Shown here piece after piece: positions 2,534 through 39,980 of a DNA stretch of 45,469 nucleotides (position 1 is its first letter; the number at the start of each line of letters is the position of its first letter). The stretch is taken from the UHGV virus genome UHGV-0206691. One strand, 5' to 3'. The position numbers and the translations under genes were made by a program. This DNA is from a virus. Under the pieces are notes generated by a model. That model had not been told where the DNA came from. It saw only the letters and a program-made list of their open reading frames with translations, and made no database searches.

Positions 2534-2755
2534 TTAGTCCTCACTTAATGCCTGAGTCGCTGCCAGGATGATAGCTGATAAACATTGCGCGCAAGGCTCT
2601 TGCCTGAATCCGTTTTCTACAGCATATAAGGCGTGTTGGGCATCCCGGAACAGCCATTCACCGTACGATGGGGTAGCTCGGCACCACGTTTCTACTTTAC
2701 TCGTCGGCAATTTAACCCCATCCAGATGGTCTACCTTTATTATGTGTTTTCTCAT
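2534..2755 (-). CDS. hypothetical protein (73 aa)
   Basis: ORF track 2534..2785 trimmed to ATG (MRKHIIKV) preceded by GGGGG. Confidence 0.4.
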   Translation of the reverse strand: MRKHIIKVDHLDGVKLPTSKVETWCRATPSYGEWLFRDAQHALYAVENGFRQEPCAQCLSAIILAATQALSED

Positions 2756-2815
2756 ACCAACCCCCACAACGCGTGCACCACACATACGGCGCTGACAATT
2801 AAAATGAACAGGTAA

Positions 2816-3055
2816 TTATTCACGGCAACCTCCCTCAGAGTCGTCGGCACGAGCATCATGATTCGATGCCGTTGTGAATAACGCTAGCCATCTCCAGGTA
2901 TAAACACACATACGTCCTTCATATACATCCTCATCAGTTACCCTGTAATCATCGCCATCATCTGAGGTAATGCACCCATCGCTACTTAGCACATAACTTT
3001 TTCCTTCTGTGAAGTAATCACATAGACTGGTTATACAAATTAATTCTTCCATCAC
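2816..3055 (-). CDS. hypothetical acidic Cys-containing protein
   Basis: ORF track; co-directional in early operon. Confidence 0.4.
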   Translation of the reverse strand: MMEELICITSLCDYFTEGKSYVLSSDGCITSDDGDDYRVTDEDVYEGRMCVYTWRWLALFTTASNHDARADDSEGGCRE

Positions 3056-3237
3056 TTCACCCCTTTGAATTTAAAATTGTTGCCGATGAGTTCTAAATCC
3101 CACTTGCGGAGTAACCCTTTACCAAACCCGGATACGCTATTAACCTCAACGAAACCGAACCACATTAACTTTGATTCTGTTACCGTAAATAAATTGCCTG
3201 TAAATTTATCCCTAACCAACTGACCCTTCTTAAACAT
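3052..3237 (-). CDS. hypothetical protein (61 aa), first gene of leftward early operon
   Basis: ORF track; AGGAG upstream; promoter 3272..3300 upstream. Confidence 0.45.
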   Translation of the reverse strand: MFKKGQLVRDKFTGNLFTVTESKLMWFGFVEVNSVSGFGKGLLRKWDLELIGNNFKFKGVK

Positions 3238-6786: not shown

Positions 6787-6808
6787 GAAAGGGGCATTAA
6801 GCCCCTTC
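6787..6808. terminator. hairpin terminator between convergent genes
   Basis: aaaGGGGCattaaGCCCCttc stem-loop; overlaps the last codons of the XRE gene. Confidence 0.5.
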
Positions 6809-7012
6809 ACCCAACGCCAGCCACTTGGCGTCTACTTCCAGCACTTCCGCCAGTTTAAACAGCGTTGCCGGGCGGACGTCCTGAGTTACTCCGAGTGCAA
6901 GCTGGTTAATCGCGCCCTGGGAAACGCCAGCCAGGACCGCCAGACGGCGCTGGGAGATGCCGAGTTCTTTGCGGCGTTGTTCTACGCGTATGCCTAGTTC
7001 AGATGGTTGCAT
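6797..7012 (-). CDS. XRE-family (Cro/CI-type) HTH transcriptional regulator
   Basis: ORF track; LGISQRRLAVLAGVSQGAINQLALG helix-turn-helix; AAGGAG RBS; divergent from gene 7137. Confidence 0.7.
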   Translation of the reverse strand: MQPSELGIRVEQRRKELGISQRRLAVLAGVSQGAINQLALGVTQDVRPATLFKLAEVLEVDAKWLALGEGA

Positions 7013-7076
7013 GTCAATTACTCCTTAGTCAGTTGATATGTGAATAGTACCATATTAATTATTTTAGAAAAGCCCA

Positions 7077-26854: not shown

Positions 26855-26883
26855 CTTGCGCGCCCCAATATAATAGGGTACTA
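26855..26883 (+). promoter_or_regulatory. early-class promoter TTGCGC-N17-TACTAT driving accessory cassette
   Basis: cTTGCGCgccccaatataatagggTACTATtcactta; matches promoters at 3272 (minus), 36202 and 38070. Confidence 0.55.
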
Positions 26884-26914
26884 TTCACTTACACCAACAA
26901 TGAAGGGGTTTAAA

Positions 26915-27106
26915 ATGTCCAGTTTACCAGTTTCCTTAATTCTGTTTGCACTGCTAGCCTATTTTGCGCCTTTCCTGGTTGCATATTTCCGCGACCATAA
27001 AGCGAAGTTAGCGATATTCATGGCCAACCTGTTTCTCGGTTGGATTCTTCTGCCGTGGGTATTTATTTTAATCTGGGCTTGCAACTCGAATGTCAAAGAG
27101 AAGTGA
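26915..27106 (+). CDS. Imm-like superinfection-immunity family small membrane protein (63 aa, 2 TM)
   Basis: ORF track 26900..27106 trimmed to ATG with GAAGGGG RBS; RDHKAKLAIFMANLFLGWILLPWVFILIWA resembles recalled Imm-family motif. Confidence 0.5.
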   Translation: MSSLPVSLILFALLAYFAPFLVAYFRDHKAKLAIFMANLFLGWILLPWVFILIWACNSNVKEK

Positions 27107-27143
27107 GCTAGTATAGGACAAATCCTAAGCACGAGGAATAAGC

Positions 27144-28274
27144 ATGGCCCGGAAGAAAATAACCGACGAACAGTTGCAGGAAGAATTGAACGCCGGTATG
27201 AAGAATATCGACATCGCCCGTAAATACGGCATCTCGGACCGCGTTATTCGCATCCGTAAAGCGAAGCTGGCTAAGAAAGGCGTAGGCCACGGGCGCGACG
27301 TTAGCCACCTTGTACCAGATGGCTACAAGATTAAAGGTACATCGTCGCTGGTTGATGAGTTCGGCAACACTAAGCTGCAATGGGTTAAGACCGACACCGA
27401 TGCTGAACGTCAGGTCGAGTTGATGAAAGCCGTAATCGAAGGCATGAAGTCAGAGATTACACCAGTTGCGCCTGTTAAAGCGACTCGAGCCAAACGCGAC
27501 GATAAACTACTCAATCTTTACACGGTATCTGATTTTCATCTCGGTATGCTGGCATGGGCTGACGAGAGCGGCGACGACTGGGATATGAAAATCGCGGAAG
27601 ACATGTTCTCTCGATGGTTCGACGCGGCGTTTCAGAAAGCACCGGATGCAGGAACAGGAGTTATTAACCTGCTTGGCGACCTTGCACACTTCGATAGTCT
27701 GGATGCCGTTACACCCGCGAGCGGTCATATTCTTGACGCGGACACGCGCTACCAGAAACTGGTCCGCTACATGATTCGTATGGTTCGCCGTGTTGTCGAT
27801 ATGGCACTTGTTAAGCATAAGAATGTTCGCTTGCTTATCGTGCAAGGGAACCACGACGAAAGCGGAATGATTTGGTTAGCTGAGATGTTCAGTACACTAT
27901 ACGACAACGAGCCGCGCGTGTTAGTAGATACGTCGCCGGATGTTTACAAGATGGTGCAACACGGCAAAACGACGTTGTTCTTTACACACGGACATAAATG
28001 CCGGTTTGAGGTGGTAGAACCCATTATGATCGCTAAGTTCAGAAAAGCATTTGGCGAAAGCGAGTACAGTTATGCGCATGTCGGACATCTCCACCACCAA
28101 AAGATTGTAGAAAGTAGGAATATGGTAGTGGAGCAGCATCGCACTCTCGCGGCGAAAGATGCATATGCTTCTCGCGGCGGGTGGATGTCAGGTCGGAGTG
28201 CAAACGTAATTACTTATAGCGCCGAATATGGAGAGGTCGCACGTTTAACTATTTCACCGGAGATGTTGGGATGA
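27144..28274 (+). CDS. HTH-fused calcineurin-like metallophosphoesterase
   Basis: ORF track; N-terminal HTH (IDIARKYGISDRVIRIRKAKL); metallophosphoesterase motifs SDFHLG, GDLAHFD, GNHDE, THGHK, GHLHH in canonical order. Confidence 0.75.
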   Translation: MARKKITDEQLQEELNAGMKNIDIARKYGISDRVIRIRKAKLAKKGVGHGRDVSHLVPDGYKIKGTSSLVDEFGNTKLQWVKTDTDAERQVELMKAVIEGMKSEITPVAPVKATRAKRDDKLLNLYTVSDFHLGMLAWADESGDDWDMKIAEDMFSRWFDAAFQKAPDAGTGVINLLGDLAHFDSLDAVTPASGHILDADTRYQKLVRYMIRMVRRVVDMALVKHKNVRLLIVQGNHDESGMIWLAEMFSTLYDNEPRVLVDTSPDVYKMVQHGKTTLFFTHGHKCRFEVVEPIMIAKFRKAFGESEYSYAHVGHLHHQKIVESRNMVVEQHRTLAAKDAYASRGGWMSGRSANVITYSAEYGEVARLTISPEMLG

Positions 28275-28504
28275 TTAAAGCCCTGTGGATTTTCATCGTA
28301 ATGCCGCTTTTGATGCTGTTTGTGCTAGCGGCTGCGGTGCTGTTTCTAGCGGTAGCCTTGTTCTTTATTACTATGGACCCGTCCGTATTCTTTAGCTTGT
28401 ACAAAGAGGTTACACAAGCGGACCTGACAGGCATACGTCTTCTGTACGTAGTCGCCGTCGTAGTTTCTGCGGTTATCATTCTGGCAGAGGAAAGTGATTT
28501 ATGA
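28271..28504 (+). CDS. small membrane protein (77 aa)
   Basis: ORF track; ATGA overlap with upstream gene; hydrophobic segments. Confidence 0.5.
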   Translation: MIKALWIFIVMPLLMLFVLAAAVLFLAVALFFITMDPSVFFSLYKEVTQADLTGIRLLYVVAVVVSAVIILAEESDL

Positions 28505-28731
28505 CTTCAAAATACAACCGCACAATGACAAACACTCACGGTAGCACTATGACAGTAGATGTTTACGATGTGCTACGTGCCTTCGACATCCGTGACCCTG
28601 CGCTACAACATGCATTGAAGAAACTATTGTGCATGGGCTTGCGGGGGCACAAGGACACCGGAACAGACTTAGCGGAAGCAATTGAAAGCCTGGAGAAGTT
28701 ACGGGAGTATCGAAGTAACATTGATGAGTGA
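28501..28731 (+). CDS. hypothetical protein (76 aa)
   Basis: ORF track; ATGA overlap with upstream gene; terminator follows. Confidence 0.5.
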   Translation: MTSKYNRTMTNTHGSTMTVDVYDVLRAFDIRDPALQHALKKLLCMGLRGHKDTGTDLAEAIESLEKLREYRSNIDE

Positions 28732-28734
28732 TAA

Positions 28735-28762
28735 AAAGGCCCCGAAAGGGGCCTTAGTTTTA
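28735..28762. terminator. bidirectional hairpin terminator closing accessory cassette
   Basis: aaaaGGCCCCgaaaGGGGCCttagtttta. Confidence 0.6.
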
Positions 28763-30342: not shown

Positions 30343-30737
30343 TATTTCACCTTGTTGGCTTCTTCGTTAATGATTTGCTGGAAGCGTGACACATTAGTCC
30401 TGACAACCCCGGCGGGGGCCTGTTGTGACCAACCATACTCCAGCCGTTGCGCATACGGCAGGTTGTTTGTCAGCGTGAACTCGTGCCAATCCACGGATTT
30501 CAGCACGAAACTCGTAGCGTTTCCGGTTGCTATGTTTCCTGATTTATCCGTAGCGTCTGTAATCCCGGAAGCAGGAGTACCGCCAGATGCCATCCAGTTC
30601 ATACGAAAGCGACCCGTATCTACCGGACTCGCCTTTATGATAGCGGAAAACAGCTTGATAGACACCTGACGCATCACCTTCTCGGGATTCTTCTTCGCCT
30701 TTTCCACAAACTTAGAGACATCAAGAGCGAAACTCAT
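30342..30737 (-). CDS. HK97 gp10-like tail completion protein
   Basis: ORF track; SPVDTGRFRMNW ... NNLPYAQRLEYGWSQQAP pattern. Confidence 0.55.
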   Translation of the reverse strand: MSFALDVSKFVEKAKKNPEKVMRQVSIKLFSAIIKASPVDTGRFRMNWMASGGTPASGITDATDKSGNIATGNATSFVLKSVDWHEFTLTNNLPYAQRLEYGWSQQAPAGVVRTNVSRFQQIINEEANKVK

Positions 30738-31093
30738 TTTCTCACCTGGATAAAGTATGCCACGACATCATCGTTAACCATCTTCTTCTCAATGGATACG
30801 ACGGACCATTGCTCGCCGCCGAATTGCACCTTGTCTTCCATCTTCGGAACGACACTGCAATCGGCTTTAACAATCATATCCCCCGCCCGAATCGTCGTGC
30901 CGTTCACCAGCCCCGCGTTTACCGGAACCGGAACGGCCTTCAACGGCAACACTTCATCGTCGGACCAGACGTACTCGCCGAGAACTTCATCCCACACTTT
31001 CGAGCCAGCACGAACCAGAGATACCGTGCTACCGAATTTGGTTAGCAGGCGTGTACCAACGCCTTGCATACGTTTACTAAAGGCGGTACTCAT
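30734..31093 (-). CDS. head closure-like protein
   Basis: ORF track 30734..31147 trimmed to internal ATG (MSTAFSKRMQG); position. Confidence 0.4.
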   Translation of the reverse strand: MSTAFSKRMQGVGTRLLTKFGSTVSLVRAGSKVWDEVLGEYVWSDDEVLPLKAVPVPVNAGLVNGTTIRAGDMIVKADCSVVPKMEDKVQFGGEQWSVVSIEKKMVNDDVVAYFIQVRK

Positions 31094-31707
31094 CAGGCGG
31101 CCTCCAGTCTCGAAATAACCAGTAGTGCTGACGGTGCGGTACCCCATGCGGTTACGGTAGCCGCTTGGGGGTATACGCCACCGAAGTTACTCCCGGCGCT
31201 ATCTCGCATAATCTGAACGGCAAACGTCTGGCCTGCGGTAGGGTTAATAACTACGCGAGACTCAATAGGGATGGTTACGTCGGCGCTGACTAGTTTTGTA
31301 GAGGCAGGCGAACCGTACTGAGCGCCGTTAAGAAGAATGCGAGATAGCAGGATAGAGGTTCCGCTAGCGCCTGTACGCCCTGCCTGTAACTTGATTCGAA
31401 CGGCATAGTTACCCGCGGTGTTGAACGTAACCAGCCCCGCGGCATTAATCATTACCGGGTCAGATGCGCTACCCTGAGCGGAGCCAAAAGTTAACTGTAA
31501 CGCCGTATCTACTGCGGTAGGCGCTTGGGTTACAGTAGACGCGGCGCGAAGAACTTCAACCTCTTTAACGCCCGGAGTGGCGTAAATAGGTGAGTCTGCC
31601 ATCTGTGTCATTACCTCGCGCAACGCTGCTGGGGTAATAAGTCCGGTGGTGTTATCGGGGAGGTTCGCACCGATAAGGGTAAACATCTCTGTTTTAGTCT
31701 TCGCCAT
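31093..31707 (-). CDS. hypothetical structural protein (204 aa)
   Basis: ORF track; within connector cluster. Confidence 0.45.
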   Translation of the reverse strand: MAKTKTEMFTLIGANLPDNTTGLITPAALREVMTQMADSPIYATPGVKEVEVLRAASTVTQAPTAVDTALQLTFGSAQGSASDPVMINAAGLVTFNTAGNYAVRIKLQAGRTGASGTSILLSRILLNGAQYGSPASTKLVSADVTIPIESRVVINPTAGQTFAVQIMRDSAGSNFGGVYPQAATVTAWGTAPSALLVISRLEAA

Positions 31708-31709
31708 TT

Positions 31710-32222
31710 TTAACCCCGGTACACGTTAAACGAGAAGCCATTGTTAAGACCGCCACACAGTAACGGGCGTAAGGCGTCGTCCGCAGCGGTAATCGCGGTT
31801 GTAGCACCACTGTTGCCGTTGTTGAAGTATGTCACTGTTACTGCGCCCTCAACACGCTCAGTCTGCACGGAACGCCCGTCAGAGTTGGCCCGCACTTCCG
31901 TGCCTGCGCCATATGTGGCGGAGGCGATTACCTGCGCAAGAATCACCTGTTTTGGGATAACGTTGTTAGCTATCGGGAACCCATTCAACGTTACACCAGT
32001 GCGAGGGTACGCCAGAGACTGTTCAGCGGATACGCGACGGCCGCACATCTGCGGCTCTGCCAGTCCGACATAAGTAGCACCATTGCGCAAGGCAACCTCT
32101 GCGGCGGTATCATCCACGGGCAACTCCAGCCCATAATTAGCCGCTAACGCGCGGGCGTCAGCCAGACTAATGTAACTGTCAGCGCCGGGTACTATTGACC
32201 CATCTTCCACGATTAGCGGCAT
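31710..32222 (-). CDS. head-tail adaptor-like protein
   Basis: ORF track; N-terminus MPLIVEDGSIVPGADSYISLADARALA typical of gp6-like adaptors. Confidence 0.5.
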   Translation of the reverse strand: MPLIVEDGSIVPGADSYISLADARALAANYGLELPVDDTAAEVALRNGATYVGLAEPQMCGRRVSAEQSLAYPRTGVTLNGFPIANNVIPKQVILAQVIASATYGAGTEVRANSDGRSVQTERVEGAVTVTYFNNGNSGATTAITAADDALRPLLCGGLNNGFSFNVYRG

Positions 32223-32225
32223 AAA

Positions 32226-32405
32226 CTATTCCTCTGACTTACGGCGATGACGCTTAGTACCACCGCCGTTGTTGTGCGCTTCTTCGTTGTCCGGTTGAGT
32301 CGCAACCAGTTCATCCGCTTCTACCACACCGCGAACAGGCATTACCTGACCGTCAACAATATCAACGTGGGTGTACTTTTCGCGGATTACGTAATTATCT
32401 ACCAT
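32226..32405 (-). CDS. small hypothetical protein (59 aa)
   Basis: own reading MVDNYVIREKYTHVDIVDGQVMPVRGVVEADELVATQPDNEEAHNNGGGTKRHRRKSEE. Confidence 0.3.
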   Translation of the reverse strand: MVDNYVIREKYTHVDIVDGQVMPVRGVVEADELVATQPDNEEAHNNGGGTKRHRRKSEE

Positions 32406-32790
32406 GATTGGCCTCGCTGTTTTTCTCCAGCAACTTCTGCTTCAGCAAGTAACCTTCAAGCATCCAAATTTTGTTTACAGCATTCTGGCGAGCAATCTTG
32501 CGCCCGATTTCTTCATCGAAGTTCTCTGGGCTGGCGCAGGCGCTTTCCCCGGTGACTGTAAAGCCATTCTTCAGCACCAGTACGCAGAATGTCAGCAGCT
32601 CCAGCTCGTCAGGCTGGTCTGGGATTTTTACGCTGTATGTTTCGCTTCTCTGCACATGAGCAAAGCGAGCACCATCAGCGGCCGTAAAGTAATGTTCGCT
32701 GGCGATTATGCTGGCAATGTGTTCAGGAGTAACGCGAGCCGCCGTCTTACCCTTGGCTGCGATTTCTTTTTCGATTTGCTGGTCGTTCAT
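32395..32790 (-). CDS. hypothetical protein (131 aa)
   Basis: ORF track; co-directional in head module. Confidence 0.45.
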   Translation of the reverse strand: MNDQQIEKEIAAKGKTAARVTPEHIASIIASEHYFTAADGARFAHVQRSETYSVKIPDQPDELELLTFCVLVLKNGFTVTGESACASPENFDEEIGRKIARQNAVNKIWMLEGYLLKQKLLEKNSEANHGR

Positions 32791-32832
32791 AATTATTACC
32801 TTTCCTTATTACGGCCCCGAAGGGCCGTTGTA

Positions 32833-33180
32833 TTAAGACACAGTTGCTACAGTGCTACTGGAGATAATATTACCATACACATCGTGAACAACCACTTTAT
32901 ACGTACCAGAATCGGCGGTAGTGGTTGACGCTTTAGAGTAGGTAGCTGCGGTAGCCCCGGCGATAGCGTTGTTATCTTTGTACCACTGGTAAGAATACGG
33001 CTCCAGACCGCCGGTAACAACTACGGTCAGTGTCATAGTCTGCCCGGCTGTAACTGCTGTAGTAGCATTCAGTGCGGTAGAAAAAGACGCTGGAGAGATG
33101 TTTGCCATGTCGATTTCAACCTGACCGTCAGAGTCTTCATCAGAAACACCAGTAATACGACGTTTGATTACATCAACCAT
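32833..33180 (-). CDS. Ig-like domain protein (possible head decoration)
   Basis: ORF track; YQWYKDNNAIAGATAATYSK...GTYKVVVHD I-set-like pattern. Confidence 0.5.
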   Translation of the reverse strand: MVDVIKRRITGVSDEDSDGQVEIDMANISPASFSTALNATTAVTAGQTMTLTVVVTGGLEPYSYQWYKDNNAIAGATAATYSKASTTTADSGTYKVVVHDVYGNIISSSTVATVS

Positions 33181-33192
33181 TTTTAAGCTCCT

Positions 33193-33492
33193 TTAGCTTA
33201 CGGTTCCTGCGTTTTTAAGCGCAGTCAACAGATTTGCTACGGTAGTGCGCAGCGCGGTAACATCAGTTAGAAGTTTGTTGTACTCGGCTACAAGCGCATC
33301 GAACTCGGCTTTAGTCGGATCCGCAGCGGACTGCGCCCCAGCGGCGGCGGTAATGGCCGCAGGTGCAGCCACAGTAGCTGACTTTTTAACCCCTCCAACT
33401 ACGCTGGTAGTAGCAGGCGTGACTGGGATATCAAAGTCGCCGAAATCGACATTCTGAAGGCTGCGCGGCAAGCCTTTTCCGGTCTTGGCCAT
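33193..33492 (-). CDS. hypothetical Ala-rich protein (99 aa)
   Basis: ORF track; directly downstream of capsid gene. Confidence 0.4.
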   Translation of the reverse strand: MAKTGKGLPRSLQNVDFGDFDIPVTPATTSVVGGVKKSATVAAPAAITAAAGAQSAADPTKAEFDALVAEYNKLLTDVTALRTTVANLLTALKNAGTVS

Positions 33493-33551
33493 AATTTACC
33501 TCTTAGTAAATGAAAAGAGGGACCGAAGTCCCTCTCGATTATAGCTTAACC

Positions 33552-34601
33552 TTAAGCCCCTACACCAGTTACCAGGAAGGCAATCGGTACGTGCTTACGC
33601 TCAACAACGCGGTTCCAGTTGGAGGCGTTCGCCAGGTCCTGCCATGAAGCAGAGCGGGCGATAGTCTCAGTGCCGTTGCCAGTGATTACTGCACTGGTGA
33701 AGCTGTAGCCCAGTGGGTGCAGCAACCAGGTCTTACGGGTCCACAGGGTTTCAACACCACCGCCGTTAGCGCGAGACGCTTCACGTTCGTATTCCAGCGG
33801 GTTGGACGGGCTGCCTTCACCATAACCGATAGCGCCGTTGCCGAAGATGATGGAGATGAACTTACGGCTCGGGCCAGTACCGACTACGGTCATGCTGTCG
33901 TCAACAATCACGCGGTAGCCCTGGTAGGTGGCGAACATGGTGTTGTTGTCAGCGTCTTTGATGAAGTCGATAAGCTGCTGCTTACGTGCCTGCGCATATA
34001 CGAAGCTATGCATCGCGATAGCGCCCAGCACTTCACCACCGTTGCCCATCAGCGCATCACCCATAGTCTGGGTAGCGTCGATGAACGCGCCTGCATCGAA
34101 GCCCAGAGTAGCGGACACGTCTACAACCATGTCATTCTGCTCGTGGTAAGCGTCGGTAGCGGCTACGTTGTCGTTATACAGACCGAGGGCGGTTGCAATC
34201 AGACGGCGTTGTGCCTGGCGCTGCCAGAAGTTATCAAGACGAGACGCTACGGATTGCAGCGGGTTCTGACTGGTCAGTTCTACCGTCAGGTCAGCTTGGC
34301 CGAAACCTTCGTTCAGATACGCAACGCGCGCCATCATCTCGCCAGTCTGGACATTACGCGGGGTCGCGATGTCCTGGTATACGTCATTCGAGTAGTTAGG
34401 CTCGATAGAGGTATCAATCGCTTTCCAGAACGGAATATTAGCGACGTTGGACGGGCCGCGGGCAATCTCGGCAGCGTATGGAGTCGGGGTCAGAATACCG
34501 GACTGGAAGAACGCGGTTTTTTCTACCGGGTCCTCTGTCATGTAAGACGCCAGGACCGGGATGTTGCCAGTTACGATATCGCCGATAGTGGTAATTGCCA
34601 T
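33552..34601 (-). CDS. major capsid protein
   Basis: ORF track; 349 aa, directly downstream of scaffold gene. Confidence 0.75.
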   Translation of the reverse strand: MAITTIGDIVTGNIPVLASYMTEDPVEKTAFFQSGILTPTPYAAEIARGPSNVANIPFWKAIDTSIEPNYSNDVYQDIATPRNVQTGEMMARVAYLNEGFGQADLTVELTSQNPLQSVASRLDNFWQRQAQRRLIATALGLYNDNVAATDAYHEQNDMVVDVSATLGFDAGAFIDATQTMGDALMGNGGEVLGAIAMHSFVYAQARKQQLIDFIKDADNNTMFATYQGYRVIVDDSMTVVGTGPSRKFISIIFGNGAIGYGEGSPSNPLEYEREASRANGGGVETLWTRKTWLLHPLGYSFTSAVITGNGTETIARSASWQDLANASNWNRVVERKHVPIAFLVTGVGA

Positions 34602-34603
34602 TA

Positions 34604-35305
34604 TTATTTCCTCAGGGCTTTAAGTTGCCGTTCAAATTCGGCAGGGTTCGATTTATACAGGGCTAGACGCTCTGCTTCACTCATGTCTTTAAACGCTGGT
34701 GCGGCCCCGCCGCCTTTGCTACCGGAAGCCCCGCCGCCGGAAGCTGCATTTGCTTTAATCAAATGCGAAAATGCTTTGTGTTCACGCAGGTATTTGCGGA
34801 ACTGTTCCGGGTCAGTCGTGATTACATTGCCATCTGCGCCAACAAACTTAGTAACCACATCATCGCCTTCGAACTCAGTCTTAACGAACGGAGCCAGAAT
34901 GTCCACTGCTTCCGGGGTAATAAAGTCACCCGCGAAAGAGCCTAACACCGCTTTACGCTCGCTGCCGAGGATGCGCTCTGCCATTTTGGAGATGCGACCA
35001 TCTTTCTCGGCTAACACCGGGTCATACTGGCTACGAATCGTTTTTTCGAACTCGTCCATCTTACCAGCGGCTTTTAATGCCTCCTGGTGCGCGCGCTGCC
35101 GTTCTTCTTCTGCCTCTTTTGCTTTACGGGCGGCTTCTTTCTTCTCCGCCAGCAATACTTCCTGATTGGCCTTAAGCCCGGCAACTTCTTTCTCAATCAG
35201 CGCCTGAACTTCTTCAGCGGTGAACATTTTTGGCGCGTCACCGCCACCGGATTTATCTTCTGCCCCAGCTTCTTCCTGGAACGGATAACGTAAAAAACGA
35301 TTCAT
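34604..35305 (-). CDS. scaffolding protein
   Basis: ORF track 34604..35359 trimmed to ATG (MNRFLRYPF) after AGGGGACA; charged coiled-coil; precedes capsid gene. Confidence 0.6.
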   Translation of the reverse strand: MNRFLRYPFQEEAGAEDKSGGGDAPKMFTAEEVQALIEKEVAGLKANQEVLLAEKKEAARKAKEAEEERQRAHQEALKAAGKMDEFEKTIRSQYDPVLAEKDGRISKMAERILGSERKAVLGSFAGDFITPEAVDILAPFVKTEFEGDDVVTKFVGADGNVITTDPEQFRKYLREHKAFSHLIKANAASGGGASGSKGGGAAPAFKDMSEAERLALYKSNPAEFERQLKALRK

Positions 35306-35387
35306 AGTCAGTATGTCCCCTGGACGTTGGAATCCGGGCCACCCGGATTTACATGTCAAGAATAAATTATTCCAACATGCAAGGCAA

Positions 35388-35651
35388 CTATTCCAGAATA
35401 TTCCTCACGTAATCCTGCAACATAAACACTTTTAGTCTTAGTTGCCGTACACATTCTGCGTTCTGAACGTCGACAGCTAAGTCCTCGTCCGCGTCACTGC
35501 TTGGCATTGCCAGTTTGCACGGCGGCTGCATCATCGTCGTATCCGGGGATGGAATTGGCGTTGGCAACGGCGCGGGACTTGAGCAGGACGCGAGCATCAT
35601 CGAAAGTGCACACGCTGCGACCAGGCGTTTTAATGTACTTAACGACTTCAC
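35388..35651 (-). CDS. Rz1: o-spanin (Rz1-like outer-membrane lipoprotein)
   Basis: ORF track; signal peptide plus lipobox LASC then Pro-rich SSPAPLPTPIPSPD; starts inside Rz in a different frame. Confidence 0.7.
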   Translation of the reverse strand: MKSLSTLKRLVAACALSMMLASCSSPAPLPTPIPSPDTTMMQPPCKLAMPSSDADEDLAVDVQNAECVRQLRLKVFMLQDYVRNILE

Positions 35652-35883
35652 GGGTAATTACCTCCGATTTCGTCTTGCCTTCGTTGTCAGCGGCTGCGGC
35701 CTTTGATTCGTCCTGCTGCTGCCGTTGTGTTTTCTTCGCTAACTCAGCCTGTGCTTTCTGCTGTTGCTGCGAAACGAGATTCGCCCGGCCTTCGTTCCAG
35801 CCGCTGCGGTATTGAAAGTAGCCGTGTGCGTATAACAGGATGATGAAACATGCTCCCGCTACGACAGTTGCTTTAAGATTCAT
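35494..35883 (-). CDS. Rz: i-spanin (Rz-like)
   Basis: ORF track; N-terminal TM (VVAGACFIILLYAHGYF) then Gln/Ala-rich coiled-coil; GAGAAAGGAGAAAC RBS. Confidence 0.75.
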   Translation of the reverse strand: MNLKATVVAGACFIILLYAHGYFQYRSGWNEGRANLVSQQQQKAQAELAKKTQRQQQDESKAAAADNEGKTKSEVITREVVKYIKTPGRSVCTFDDARVLLKSRAVANANSIPGYDDDAAAVQTGNAKQ

Positions 35884-35906
35884 GTTTCTCCTTTCTCGAT
35901 AAGTAA

Positions 35907-35928
35907 AGCCCCGCCATAAAGCGGGGCG
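35907..35928 (-). terminator. hairpin in leader upstream of spanin genes
   Basis: AGCCCCGCcataaaGCGGGGCG; T-rich tract follows on minus strand. Confidence 0.4.
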
Positions 35929-36201
35929 CTAGTCCTTATCATTTAAACATAGAAACGGCGTAATCTCAGTAAACCAGTTACTTTTTACACAAGCAATAGA
36001 CTATGGCCCTTCCGAACGCGTCAGCGTAACTACACTCAGGACTTACGTCCCGCTCCGTTACCTGCCCGCGCCGCGGTCGCTTGTTCATACTTCACAAGCT
36101 CAGGTGAGCTTAGCACATTTTCAGTGAAAAGTCAACTATTCGAATAGTTTATTCCGACATTTACAATTGAGCGGAATACCTGGAATACGTAAATAAATAG
36201 T

Positions 36202-36230
36202 TTGCAGACACCAATATAATAGGGTACTAT
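36202..36230 (+). promoter_or_regulatory. early-class promoter TTGCAG-N17-TACTAT
   Basis: tTTGCAGacaccaatataatagggTACTATtcagttaa; 36-nt core identical to copy at 38070. Confidence 0.55.
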
Positions 36231-36258
36231 TCAGTTAACTTAAACAGGAGGTGTTACT

Positions 36259-36492
36259 ATGGGTGCGTACAAACATTCTATAAACTGGAAAGGTAGACGT
36301 GGCTTAGCTGTTCTCGAAGGGGGTGTTTCAGGCCCACACGCGTTTGGGTGGTGGCTAGTTCCATCATATTCAAACAAACATGGCGGGCAGGACTACGACT
36401 GGAATAACGCCATACCTACTAGATTCAAAACAAAGAAAGCCGCGTTGGACGCGCGTAAAGAGTTAAGAAAAGGGGGACTATTTTTACAGTAA
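36259..36492 (+). CDS. hypothetical accessory protein (77 aa)
   Basis: ORF track; CAGGAGGTG RBS; own promoter and terminator; antisense to head module. Confidence 0.5.
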   Translation: MGAYKHSINWKGRRGLAVLEGGVSGPHAFGWWLVPSYSNKHGGQDYDWNNAIPTRFKTKKAALDARKELRKGGLFLQ

Positions 36493-36497
36493 AAATA

Positions 36498-36516
36498 AGG
36501 CCCCTTAAAGGGGCCC
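36498..36516. terminator. bidirectional hairpin terminator
   Basis: AGGCCCCttaaaGGGGCCCT after stop of 36259..36492. Confidence 0.55.
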
Positions 36517-36520
36517 TCTA

Positions 36521-36982
36521 TCATTCTGGCTTAATAACCTTCGCCGCTTTACTGACAGCCTCTACACCATCGGCATCAGTAACTTTAACGAAGTATTCGC
36601 CTGCTGCGTTAACCGTCAGAGACAAGACCTCTTCAGGGGCGTTTACCACTTCCTTTCCGTCTTTGTACCAGGTCAGCGCATACGGTGCTTTGCCCGCCTT
36701 AACTTCGACAGTGATGATTGCGCTACCGTCTGCCAGTTCAGTGTCTTTCGGTTGCACAGAGAAATACACGTCGCCAGCATCAGCCAGATACGGAATCTCA
36801 TAGAGCATGCCCGCTGCAGGCAGGGCAATACCGGTCTTGTCTGCAAACGGCATAACGTCTACAGGTGCACCCAGTACACTTTCGTCTTCAATAAACACCA
36901 CGTTCTCGCCAGAGCCAGACACACGGGCGTACTGAACAACACGACGCGACGGCACATCAGTTACTTTAAAAAAGCCCATCAT
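36521..36982 (-). CDS. Ig-like domain protein (possible capsid decoration)
   Basis: ORF track; YALTWYKDGKEV...GEYFVKVTDADG I-set-like pattern. Confidence 0.5.
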   Translation of the reverse strand: MMGFFKVTDVPSRRVVQYARVSGSGENVVFIEDESVLGAPVDVMPFADKTGIALPAAGMLYEIPYLADAGDVYFSVQPKDTELADGSAIITVEVKAGKAPYALTWYKDGKEVVNAPEEVLSLTVNAAGEYFVKVTDADGVEAVSKAAKVIKPE

Positions 36983-38025
36983 TATTCCCCTTTCAGATAA
37001 TCAGCAACACGTTTATCGAGTTCCGCCATCTGCTTAAGCGTGAGCGGATTCCCGAAACCATCTACAGATATTACGCGAAACTCTTCCGGCGATATACCGC
37101 TGTTACGGAAAATCTTACCTCGCACCGGGCCGAGAGCCTGGTCCTGAAACCATGCAGGTTGTTGTTTCAGGAACTCATAATAAGTGGTGTCTGCGCTTAC
37201 CTGAGTGCCGCCTTCTGCACCCTTAGCTGCTCGTTTTGCACCTTTATCGAGGAAGTCGAATTCTGAACTTATTACAGGCGCAGTGGTACTCCTGCAATTA
37301 GGATGTGCGGGCGGCATCGGCCCTTTACCAATTTCCCACGTCATCCCGTCTCTGGCTCTGCAAATCGTACTGGTACGGCTGTCCAGCGTTGACACCCATT
37401 CGTATTTCTCGATAATGTCGTCGTTCTGGCGGTATGTCTCGTTACGGGCTTCGTTGGATACATGGGACAGCGCGGTGCGGATTACCGTAGCAGCGTTACG
37501 TTCAGAGATGTCCGCCAGTCCGCCAGCACCCACGACATTCTTAACAATCTGCCGTGTCGTCTGGCCTTGTACGAAACCCATCTTAACACCTGTTACCAGG
37601 CGCGATACTTCGGTTTCACCCCAGCTGGGCATCAGCTTAGTGAAATCGACAGGCTTGTCACTTAGTGCCAGAGGCTGAAACTCGGCGGCGGCCCACACCT
37701 GTTCGGCGGTGGGCGTAACAAATTCCGCGCCTACGTTGGCGGTCAGTGTCTTTACGTTCCACTCGGCCTCATACGCTGCCAGCTCCTTAAGGTCTTCTGT
37801 CAGCTTTGTCTGCCAGTCACCTGTAAGTCCTGTCAGTGCTTCTTCCAGGTCTCGTAACAGTTTATTCAGTCGCGCAGTGCTACGACCATCGTCGCCAAAT
37901 AGCAGCACCTGCCGTTTTATTTCGTCCCGCATTTCCTGAATGAATGGTGTGAAGTCTTTCACTTCACCGGACGCGGCGCGTTGCAGCCATATCTGGTGGC
38001 TGATTATGGATGTCAGTAAGCTCAT
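36982..38025 (-). CDS. head morphogenesis protein (Mu F / SPP1 gp7 family)
   Basis: ORF track 36982..38082 trimmed to ATG (MSLLTSII) after AGGAGGG; conserved STICRARDG ... HPNCRST. Confidence 0.8.
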   Translation of the reverse strand: MSLLTSIISHQIWLQRAASGEVKDFTPFIQEMRDEIKRQVLLFGDDGRSTARLNKLLRDLEEALTGLTGDWQTKLTEDLKELAAYEAEWNVKTLTANVGAEFVTPTAEQVWAAAEFQPLALSDKPVDFTKLMPSWGETEVSRLVTGVKMGFVQGQTTRQIVKNVVGAGGLADISERNAATVIRTALSHVSNEARNETYRQNDDIIEKYEWVSTLDSRTSTICRARDGMTWEIGKGPMPPAHPNCRSTTAPVISSEFDFLDKGAKRAAKGAEGGTQVSADTTYYEFLKQQPAWFQDQALGPVRGKIFRNSGISPEEFRVISVDGFGNPLTLKQMAELDKRVADYLKGE

Positions 38026-38069
38026 ATGCCCTCCTATAGTATCGCCAGTGTAACGCATAAAAATAATAT

Positions 38070-38098
38070 TTGCAGACACCAATATAATAGGGTACTAT
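38070..38098 (+). promoter_or_regulatory. early-class promoter TTGCAG-N17-TACTAT
   Basis: tTTGCAGacaccaatataatagggTACTATtcagttaa. Confidence 0.55.
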
Positions 38099-38129
38099 TC
38101 AGTTAAACGACAAAGAGGAGGAAGAAAAC

Positions 38130-38459
38130 ATGATTAATGCTAAAGAAGAGTTGCTCGCCCATCTGGATGGTAAAGATGTAGTTAAATGCGCCTGGTTTGC
38201 AGACTATGATGCGGATGACGCGGATTACGGTTTCGTTGAGGGGAGTAAATGGCTCCTGCGGGAGAATTACTCCCGCGGAGAATGGGAAAGCCTAATGGCC
38301 GCACTTGATTTTGAATACCACGACGGTTACGGCAGTCAAAACTTCTTCGGGGTAATTTGGTACGAAGATGGTACATGGTCTTCTCGCGGAGAATACGATG
38401 GTTCTGAATGGTGGGAATATAATGCCGTGCCGGATGTGCCGGAAGAACTTAAGCGCTAA
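38130..38459 (+). CDS. hypothetical acidic Trp/Tyr-rich accessory protein (109 aa)
   Basis: ORF track; AGAGGAGG RBS; own promoter and terminator; antisense to head module. Confidence 0.5.
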   Translation: MINAKEELLAHLDGKDVVKCAWFADYDADDADYGFVEGSKWLLRENYSRGEWESLMAALDFEYHDGYGSQNFFGVIWYEDGTWSSRGEYDGSEWWEYNAVPDVPEELKR

Positions 38460-38463
38460 AATT

Positions 38464-38487
38464 AAGGCCCCTTTAGGGGCCTTTTCT
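38464..38487. terminator. bidirectional hairpin terminator
   Basis: AAGGCCCCtttaGGGGCCTTTTcttatt. Confidence 0.6.
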
Positions 38488-39980
38488 TATTGCTGCTGTT
38501 GGTCTTGCGGAGATTGTTCCTGTCTTGCTGTAGCAGGAATCTCTCCCGCCACCTGAGTATTTGCACCTAGCGGCAACGGTGCGTCTTCGATAGCGTTCTG
38601 AATGTCCTCGTCTGTCCAGTCAGTTACGCCCGCTTTGCGCAATGCTGCATAGTAAGCGGTAGCTGGTAGCAGACCAGCGTTAATATCCGCCATCCACTGT
38701 GCGCGGTCCTGAGCGGTCATCGGTTGCAGGAAGAACTCCATATTCAGCTTGAACTCAACCTCTGTACCTTCACGCAGCCCCAGCATCGCGGACACCCAGC
38801 GCAATGCTTCGGTATACGCCATGCTTACGTTACGCGCGATTGTCGCCATAACGGACGTATCAGCGCCGCGTTGTAGACGGGCGGATTCAGCGGTTATTTG
38901 CTGCGTCGGGGTGATAAGCTGCGCACCAATCTGAATGGCCTGATTCTCTTTATCCAGCATGTTCTGCTTAGCCAGGTTGTTCTCCCCCGCCTGAACCAGA
39001 AACGCATTGCCGCCGTAGCCAATGTTATGACCTGAACGCGACCCCATGCGCACGCCGTGAGGATTGGCTTCTTTCCACTGCTCCATACTCATGTTCTCGC
39101 CCGGGGCAATGAACAGCGTTGGCTGGCCTACAACGAAGCTGGATTCCTCATTGTCTGCGCTGTTGCGGAAATGTCCGATATTAAGCTCGGCCAACGGCAG
39201 CAAAGGGGCGTCGTCAATGGTCGCGTCGTTGTTGCTGGCCCCAATGAACGTGAACGGGATTTTGCCACGTAACTGTTCGCCGAGTTCCGGGAATATTTCG
39301 ATTACTTCATCCTGCGCACCACCTTCGGCATCGAAGCGGTAAATGCGCTGGCGATAGCGCCCGTCAATCAGGTCAAGGACGCGGTATTGTTCACCGAATT
39401 TTGTTTCGAACTCTGCGCCCGGTTCTGAGTATTCCCACACCTCGCGCAATACAACCATCGTCACGCGGTTAACTGAACCGACGCGAGTCAGTCGCCAGTT
39501 GATGATGTTCTCTGCGGTATAGAATGCGATGACCGGGTTTAGTAGCCCCGCGTTCTGTTCTGCCGCCGTTGCCGCGGCTGTTTCTGGGGCGTCCACCAGC
39601 AGTCCACCACGACCCACCGAGTCAATCTCCATTAGCGTATCCTGCGCGTGCTGCCACAGCCCGACACCGGAACCGTCCACATTATGTAACAGGTACTCCA
39701 GTTCAGGCGGAATAATCTGCTCAGGGTCTTTATGCATAATGCTGCCGACCATCCCCGCCAGGGTACGCTTAGTGAAGTTGTAGCAGATAGCGCCGTTCTC
39801 GTATTCTTCCTGGCGCTGTGCCGCGTATGTCGGGTCGGGTTCGTTTTTTCCTACGTTACGAAGATAGCGAATAAGGTCGCCTTCCAGAGCGTGGCGGACC
39901 TTCTGCCATTTATTGAAGTGATGCAGCCATTCCCGGTGTTTTGTCTTAACACCCTGATTCTGACCGTTCATAGTTAACAT
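38487..39980 (-). CDS. portal protein
   Basis: ORF track; 497 aa between terminase large subunit and head morphogenesis gene; Gln-rich C-terminal tail. Confidence 0.8.
   Translation of the reverse strand: MLTMNGQNQGVKTKHREWLHHFNKWQKVRHALEGDLIRYLRNVGKNEPDPTYAAQRQEEYENGAICYNFTKRTLAGMVGSIMHKDPEQIIPPELEYLLHNVDGSGVGLWQHAQDTLMEIDSVGRGGLLVDAPETAAATAAEQNAGLLNPVIAFYTAENIINWRLTRVGSVNRVTMVVLREVWEYSEPGAEFETKFGEQYRVLDLIDGRYRQRIYRFDAEGGAQDEVIEIFPELGEQLRGKIPFTFIGASNNDATIDDAPLLPLAELNIGHFRNSADNEESSFVVGQPTLFIAPGENMSMEQWKEANPHGVRMGSRSGHNIGYGGNAFLVQAGENNLAKQNMLDKENQAIQIGAQLITPTQQITAESARLQRGADTSVMATIARNVSMAYTEALRWVSAMLGLREGTEVEFKLNMEFFLQPMTAQDRAQWMADINAGLLPATAYYAALRKAGVTDWTDEDIQNAIEDAPLPLGANTQVAGEIPATARQEQSPQDQQQQ

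Follow-up and report, generated by a model that had tools for sequence, protein, structure and literature searches.

A divergent orf148-family gene with a candidate counter-defence role in an exchangeable antisense cassette of a Kagunavirus-like phage

The virus genome UHGV-0206691 (45,469 nt; 'the window' below means this whole stretch) carries, between two leftward head genes, a single rightward gene encoding an acidic 109-amino-acid (aa) protein. The best overall explanation, to which we assign a probability of about 60%, is that this gene is the cargo of a swappable cassette and that its product, a member of the orf148/T5.067/phrog_3972 family, is by homology most likely a binder or inhibitor of a host component. 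Parts of this explanation stand at different strengths: a single-gene accessory cassette in a hypervariable slot is highly probable, the balance leans slightly towards a counter-defence role for the gene, and inhibition of a protein as its mode of action is tentative. The source genome is a Kagunavirus-like (Guernseyvirinae) Escherichia coli siphophage, with 2.5 kb around the cassette matching 317 phage records, the closest of which are Escherichia phages of the genus Kagunavirus (best ~89–90% identity). The cassette and its flanks comprise the following features, including the ribosome-binding sites (RBS).

38026..38069, no strand: conserved left junction, holding the RBS of the MuF-like gene (GGAGGG, minus strand, ~38030–38035) and an AT-rich stretch upstream of the promoter
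38070..38098, plus strand: predicted sigma-70-type promoter, −35 TTGCAG (38070–38075), 17-nt spacer, −10 TACTAT (38093–38098)
38086..38099, no strand: palindrome AATAGGGTACTATT, lying across the −10 hexamer; possible operator bound by a dimeric phage regulator
38099..38129, plus strand: 5′ leader with RBS AGAGGAGG at 38115–38122, 7 nt before the ATG, as read from the sequence
38130..38459, plus strand: cargo gene, ATG to TAA, 109 aa; acidic α/β protein of the T5.067/orf148/phrog_3972 family
38464..38491, no strand: intrinsic terminator AAGGCCCC-TTTA-GGGGCCTT with a T-rich tail
36982–38025, minus strand: MuF-like head-morphogenesis gene (PF04233, E 2e-13; phrog_241, E 1.5e-153)
38487–39980, minus strand: portal gene (phrog_145, E 9e-148; DUF4055)

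The cargo open reading frame (ORF) is thus antisense to both neighbours. An original prediction, made from the letters of the DNA, had described the gene, its flanks, promoter, RBS and hairpin, and each was recovered where it had been placed; the protein is also acidic and rich in Trp and Tyr, as had been said (isoelectric point (pI) 4.16, net charge −16, 7 Trp, 8 Tyr).

Membership of the orf148/T5.067/phrog_3972 family is close to certain. The window protein matched phrog_3972 (function unknown in PHROGs) over residues 1–109 (E 3.4e-24), aligned by BLASTP with orf148 (ASM62875.1) over residues 1–108 at 43% identity (E 5e-29) and by tblastn with T5.067 at 44.5% identity (E 7e-19), orf148 being 90% identical to T5.067. 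A profile built from 16 T5-like orthologues alone scored it at 89.9 bits, the sole match in the window. The original prediction had assigned it to no recognisable family, which does not hold for so clear a member, yet Pfam, NCBIfam and solved structures give nothing. Family members are 100–130 aa long and acidic (pI 4.05–5.01 in all sampled), with a core consisting of an N-terminal NAKxE, a Y-x-x-G-Y-G-x-Q loop and a nearly invariant W-x-x-DGTW-x-x-RGEYDGSEWW. In a 53-sequence alignment the window protein keeps all 13 invariant columns (N3, A4, E7, Y63, G68, G74, T82, G87, Y89, D90, G91, E93 and W94) and 17 of 17 nearly invariant ones, and the core is also retained in a 46-sequence alignment of distant members. 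The same PHROG includes a second subfamily (MTNLLxETLE...RGEYDGSEWW).

The family is almost entirely phage-borne. Matches by tblastn came from 213 phage records, nearly all T5-like, and a search of 5.8 billion proteins gave 738 matches, the best 120 of which all lack a Pfam domain. With clustering at 50% identity, an exhaustive profile search returned 2383 cluster representatives, 1116 having E ≤ 1e-10; relatives are encoded on 501 viral contigs, and 52 near-identical members lie on ~44-kb contigs. Among bacteria and archaea (representative genomes, 185,579 species) only 20 loci were found, mostly on contigs of metagenome-assembled genomes or in Streptococcus prophages and with assigned taxa from several phyla. 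Across 75 viral loci no recurrent partner gene was found; the family gene is co-directional with both neighbours in 52 of the 75, often near replication genes. T5.067 itself lies at 33205–33552 in the early/tRNA region of T5, and a Streptococcus cristatus prophage holds the family gene between a helicase gene and late activator and terminase genes. Among ten long homologues, fusions were rare and uninformative (an FGE-sulfatase domain in P0246 and one UBA/EF-Ts-like tail), and searches of the literature by name returned nothing relevant for T5.067 and nothing for the motif string or phrog_3972.

Several smaller observations concern the family sequences. At 38211–38225 the window gene has an in-frame three-residue insertion relative to L082 and L182, which are closest to it (ADYDADDADYG versus ADYDADYG), in the variable β1–β2 loop. 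On a 44.7-kb contig (L187, 3001–3312) the 3′ end of the orf148-like gene is frameshifted, reading ...EWWFRMVGVQ in place of ...EWWEYNEVPEIPDFLK; either this copy is decaying or the sequence contains an error. The label 'excisionase' attached to phrog_16544 was judged an annotation artefact, the 60 positions of that PHROG covering only the region of the RGEYDGSEWW motif; a T5-like homologue (PV016700.1, 103472–103530) bears the same label, probably through a match to this motif.

The functional reading draws on orf148, which a motif search of the supplementary tables of Silas et al. identified as a family member (UDP0148, ASM62875.1, from phage OSYSP). Silas et al. (2023, 2025) reported that several phages gain fitness from orf148 in a number of wild E. 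coli strains, that its effect is uncorrelated with the strains' defence repertoires, and that transposon hits in O-antigen or capsule genes phenocopy it; they saw no shift of O-antigen bands and no clear pattern in affinity purification–mass spectrometry (AP-MS), for which ECOR3 and ECOR66 were used (10.1101/2023.04.06.535777; PMC12373910). DefenseFinder v2.0.1 lists 'orf148' as an anti-defence type, and in Demerecviridae 37.4% of its anti-defence calls are of this type. The T5 homologue is dispensable, because a viable T5Mos deletion (30661–38625; PMC11464382) spans T5.067; the deletion in T5 st0 (AY692264), also considered, was uninformative, the gene being retained there. The published phenotype of this 43%-identical homologue backs the earlier suggestion that the window protein is a candidate anti-defence protein.

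The slot between the portal and MuF genes (slot A) is hypervariable. We took 75 loci around MuF homologues and measured the portal–MuF gap in the 72 that also hold the upstream portal gene. Cargo was missing from 38 of these, with gaps of 45–64 nt in 25 close relatives (from an extrapolated portal end) and <140 nt in 13 more distant ones; in Bas75 the two genes lie 36 nt apart. The other 34 loci were occupied (216–1453 nt between portal and MuF) by ~15–20 unrelated cargo families of 55–311 aa, including two DNA methyltransferases, a 217–225-aa family (11 loci) and multi-gene inserts. This presence and absence across related phages bears out the original view of a single-gene accessory cassette, or moron: most close relatives lack the gene, and some have unrelated genes in its place. 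An orf148-like cargo occupies slot A in the window and in only one of the 72 loci (L027/L082, 94% identity), on the strand opposite to the head genes, a distribution unlike that of a core structural or head-assembly gene. Among the 317 records matching the flanks, Shemara alone has a homologue, in another slot.

Two side observations concern other occupants and neighbours of this slot. Loci L003 (fBC-Eco01) and L005 (SHAK7693) carry a 173-aa portal/MuF-slot cargo at the same locus coordinates (2627–3148) and of the same length. One record names it 'DNA polymerase III sliding clamp' and the other 'RusA-like Holliday junction resolvase'; the names conflict, and both are annotation only. In L182–L185, close relatives represented by European Nucleotide Archive (ENA) contigs with P0002, the MuF-like gene encodes 645 aa versus 347, probably owing to an intein, as annotated in fEg-Eco06, and an HNH endonuclease gene lies between the portal and terminase genes.

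The boundaries of the variable part are sharp. Other kagunaviruses are 95–99% identical over window positions 38026–38106 and then diverge completely, homology resuming at the hairpin; the left junction (38026..38069) is conserved at this level irrespective of cargo, as is the promoter. Junction alignments define a conserved left arm (MuF start, promoter and often the leader CAGTTAACTTAAACAGGAG) and a conserved right arm (hairpin AAGGCCCCnnnnGGGGCCTT and portal 3′ end), and empty slots retain a remnant, AATAGCATACTAT, followed by the hairpin. The leader is ~91% identical to that of a relative with a different cargo (H33–H35).

Further slots of similar build occur in the same genome.

36202..36517, plus strand: sister cassette in the Hoc-like/spanin slot, with an identical 29-nt promoter, a 77-aa orphan gene (36259–36492) and a similar terminator
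26856–28760: third antisense island, with four genes between the same promoter and a bidirectional hairpin, inside the tail/structural region
26915–27106: Imm-like superinfection-immunity membrane protein (phrog_1039)
27144–28274: SbcD-like phosphoesterase (phrog_704)
28271–28504: small membrane protein of the third island
28501–28731: 76-aa protein (phrog_2452)

The 77-aa protein had no match in PHROGs, NCBIfam or PADLOC. In relatives the Hoc/spanin slot is hypervariable too, and four cargo families (a 250-aa methyltransferase and families of 173 aa, ~60 aa and 94 aa) were found in slot A or the Hoc/spanin slot of different phages. The 173-aa family, common to both slots, sits in slot A of L016. 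Homologues of the window protein occupy three antisense slots across Guernseyvirinae-like genomes: the portal/MuF slot in the window, L082 and P0002 (the last read on 24 contigs), the scaffold/spanin slot in Shemara (73% identity), P0008 and P0010, and a slot downstream of MuF in L064. The nucleotide match between the window and Shemara spans leader, gene and terminator and excludes the promoter. Because cargo families are shared across slots, orf148-like genes occur in three of them and the Shemara match lacks the promoter, these patterns indicate that leader–gene units are exchanged between standard promoter and terminator flanks, presumably by homologous recombination.

The promoter call rests on repetition, position upstream of co-oriented RBSs and conservation rather than on consensus strength. 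The 29-mer at 38070–38098 has a second exact copy at 36202–36230 (0 expected from shuffles) and a third copy near 26856, and its 20-nt core occurs seven times at ≤3 mismatches (0 expected), each of the seven related sites lying 25–35 nt upstream of the RBS of a co-oriented gene. A generic sigma-70 scan did not list the cassette promoter. In the Kagunavirus fBC-Eco01 the same motif has been reported as seven PHIRE-predicted 'phage promoters', of whose consensus the cassette promoter is the reverse complement (PMC9825357). The promoter originally proposed for the gene is a markedly non-random sequence element and a putative promoter, with a match to the consensus at only 7 of 12 positions. A minus-strand promoter-like site facing the MuF gene (TTGTCG, 18 nt, TATTAT; 38113–38084), which the scan did list, is probably due to chance because its −35 hexamer sits in the cargo-specific leader and is unconserved in relatives.

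The most conserved part of the promoter is the embedded palindrome AATAGnnnnCTATT, with eight exact sites against 0.03 expected (1860, 3271, 7087, 10005, 13779, 26872, 36218 and 38086), all within promoter-like sites in either orientation. For the cassette promoters and the leftward ones, the overlap is with the −10 hexamer; in three rightward replication-region promoters the palindrome lies in the spacer of the near-consensus TTGACA-17-TATAgT. A 71-aa Cro-like helix-turn-helix (HTH) gene (6797–7012, minus strand) adjoins divergent palindromic promoters at 7041/7085/7087. We infer that the palindrome is an operator for a phage regulator, and the AATAGnnnnCTATT sites together with the HTH protein resemble an operator/regulator pair serving the whole genome. 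The promoter type of the cassette also stands at the head of small-gene arrays that run leftward from 1858 and 3269; given this shared promoter type, co-orientation with replication genes and the early-module position of the family elsewhere, the cargo is probably expressed early.

At the 3′ end, the hairpin at 38464–38483 has an 8-bp stem (6 GC), a 4-nt loop and a TTTTCTTATT tail, with a predicted free energy of −18.9 kcal/mol on the plus strand (z = −3.0) and −19.6 kcal/mol on the minus strand; both the RBS and the strong hairpin with its T-run had been foreseen. It begins 5 nt past the cargo stop codon and ends 3 nt before the portal stop codon (38487–38489), and since it sits between the two stop codons, the converging cargo and portal genes share it. 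A homologous hairpin is kept in every occupied and empty slot of relatives, and similar ones occur in the window at 36497–36517 and 28737–28756. An Rfam scan of the whole window found no RNA family.

Scans of Pfam and NCBIfam gave no family for the window protein; a PADLOC match to PglX over the conserved motif (14 bits, E 0.0035) was treated as noise because nothing else supports PglX. A profile search of PDB sequences found nothing below E 0.5. An AlphaFold2 model built with a 52-sequence alignment was confident (pLDDT 87, pTM 0.77), with the order α-β-β-α-β-β-β; Foldseek returned no significant match in the PDB (best E 0.69), and BFVD contained uncharacterised homologues only. No sequence or fold similarity to the characterised acidic DNA mimics and anti-defence sponges Ocr, ArdA, Arn, Tad and Acb appeared in Pfam, PHROGs, NCBIfam, PDB or Foldseek searches.

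We propose that this Kagunavirus-like E. coli siphophage carries, in a slot that is hypervariable, an autonomous and exchangeable accessory cassette. Its promoter, conserved and of host type, bears a phage-wide palindromic operator-like element and would drive a rightward one-gene transcript antisense to the late head genes, the promoter may be repressed through the palindrome, and the hairpin common to the portal gene would end the transcript. Promoter and terminator, kept in relatives, would act as homology arms, so that co-infecting phages could swap cargo between phages and between slots. The family proteins, small, acidic, aromatic-rich and α/β, would act without a conserved partner gene, and inside the infected cell the window protein may, on its own, bind or inhibit a host component that is broadly conserved; the barrier weakened in this way would be a general one to phage growth and not a single strain-specific defence system.

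Several points weigh against this explanation. The tested homologue is just 43% identical, the assay was heterologous over-expression, and AP-MS and lipopolysaccharide (LPS) gels gave no target. The promoter hexamers match the consensus at 7 of 12 positions, and the GC content of the cargo (0.482 versus 0.507 for the genome, the 28th percentile among 330-nt windows) gives no sign of recent foreign origin. Lowering a surface barrier would have no obvious benefit for a phage already inside the cell. Finally, ~20 polar and aromatic residues are near-invariant across phages of many bacterial phyla; such invariance would be unusual for an arms-race protein–protein inhibitor, and a ligand-binding or catalytic site would fit at least as well.

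This last point leads to the strongest rival, an unlikely one in our estimation, in which the protein binds a small molecule as a 'sponge', or is a miniature enzyme, its target being a universal metabolite (nucleotide, signalling nucleotide or nucleotide-sugar) and not a host protein that it inhibits. It would make sense of the invariant Gly-rich Y-x-x-G-Y-G-x-Q loop and of the invariant W/Y/R/E/D residues in the β3–β5 hairpins (Y63, G66, G68, Q70, W77, D80, T82, W83, R86, E88, Y89, D90, E93, W94 and W95), and a universal ligand is favoured because the same core recurs in phages whose assignments include Proteobacteria, Firmicutes, Bacteroidota, the candidate phyla radiation (CPR) and others. 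This rival also accords with the absence of a partner gene, agrees with the lack of a clear protein partner for orf148 in AP-MS, and could through a metabolite link account for the phenocopy by envelope-polysaccharide mutants. However, the protein shows no structural likeness to a known sponge or nucleotide-binding fold and no Pfam or PADLOC family besides the probably spurious PglX match, and orf148 left the O-antigen bands unshifted.

A joint reading of slots and protein is doubtful. Under it, Guernseyvirinae would carry standardised, regulator-controlled 'expression sockets' (an identical palindrome promoter plus GC hairpin, at least three per genome) that shuffle counter-defence cargo between slots and phages by homologous recombination, and the orf148-family cargo would have a new fold, with an invariant aromatic/acidic pocket for either a universal metabolite or a host factor. 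If true, it would explain why a barrier-lowering effect is conserved in phages of many bacterial phyla.

It is quite improbable that the protein instead serves phage DNA metabolism in an accessory role, for instance by binding a host or phage nucleic-acid enzyme as an acidic mimic or a modulator, with the orf148 phenotype being indirect. Family genes in T5, the Streptococcus prophage and many viral contigs do lie in early or replication modules (near primase, helicase, polymerase and single-stranded DNA-binding protein genes), every sampled member is strongly acidic, as are Ocr, Arn and Gam-type mimics, and the same slots also carry DNA methyltransferases and the SbcD-like phosphoesterase. Set against this, no fold match to known DNA mimics was found, the T5 homologue is dispensable, and only a minority of kagunaviruses carry the gene while the rest replicate without it.

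We consider it very improbable that the gene is a classic moron shielding the infected cell from other phages (superinfection exclusion or defence) rather than a counter-defence gene: the promoter–gene–terminator anatomy fits the definition and a sister cassette bears the Imm-like gene, but several phages infected better, not worse, with the tested homologue, the protein looks cytoplasmic and has no membrane segment, and the phage group is reported to be virulent (PMC7203180). Least credible of all is a silent or decaying passenger, unexpressed or no longer functional, to which the weak consensus match of the promoter and the frameshifted 3′ end in L187 would point, since the ORF is intact with a strong RBS, all invariant family residues are kept, 52 near-identical members exist, and a dN of 0.16 with saturated dS relative to the Shemara homologue (dN/dS well below 1) shows purifying selection.

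Taken alone, the gene is unremarkable, one more accessory gene in a phage hotspot. Its setting places a divergent (43%) member of the orf148 family in a small, easily engineered virulent phage for which a natural isogenic 'empty slot' allele exists, and the family is a large phage-borne one with no Pfam entry or significant solved-structure match, whose invariant residues provide a direct list for mutagenesis. The slot architecture offers a concrete model for the trade of counter-defence genes among virulent siphophages and a ready-made payload insertion site for therapeutic kagunaviruses.

Compared with orf148 and T5.067, the window protein shares full-length homology, the same PHROG, length class, acidity and invariant motif, and with them belongs to a stand-alone type that is dispensable in the laboratory (T5Mos). 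It differs in lacking a C-terminal tail of ~10 residues and in its β1–β2 loop, with an extra DAD; and whereas orf148 lies in the early/tRNA region of a 110–120-kb T5-like genome, the window gene is an isolated antisense cassette in the head module of a 45-kb siphophage.

Morons of lambdoid phages, a concept drawn from comparisons of HK97 and HK022, are promoter–gene–terminator units between conserved genes. The window cassette resembles them in being a single gene with its own predicted promoter and factor-independent terminator, variably present between late genes. Unlike them, it belongs to a virulent phage group, so there is no lysogen to benefit; its promoter and terminator are conserved backbone kept in the empty slot, so the mobile part is the leader and gene; and the composition of its cargo is not atypical.

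Phage accessory regions or diversity hotspots (Silas et al.; 10.1101/2023.04.06.535777) are likewise hypervariable loci between core genes that hold unrelated small genes, among them methyltransferases and other functions of anti-restriction type, but the window genome has at least two slots with the same promoter and terminator and common cargo families, and its cassettes are antisense islands within the structural operon. The acidic DNA mimics Ocr, ArdA and Arn are also small, very acidic, stand-alone phage proteins, and early ones, as the window protein probably is; in contrast to them the window protein is rich in Trp and Tyr, shows no similarity in sequence or fold, and has an invariant polar core that would suit a binding pocket better than a surface imitating phosphates. 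Gnarl1–3, O-antigen-modifying proteins from the same screen, share with orf148 a broad phage-sensitising phenotype phenocopied by O-antigen or capsule mutants, whereas orf148 is unrelated to them in sequence, causes no O-antigen band shift and has no identified target such as GalU; gnarl3 of phage Mangalitsa, considered as a possible Kagunavirus-slot cargo, was rejected, Mangalitsa being a Chaseviridae phage. Placed among these systems, the window gene adds a divergent new member to an anti-defence family already catalogued, and it is situated in a moron-like exchangeable slot.

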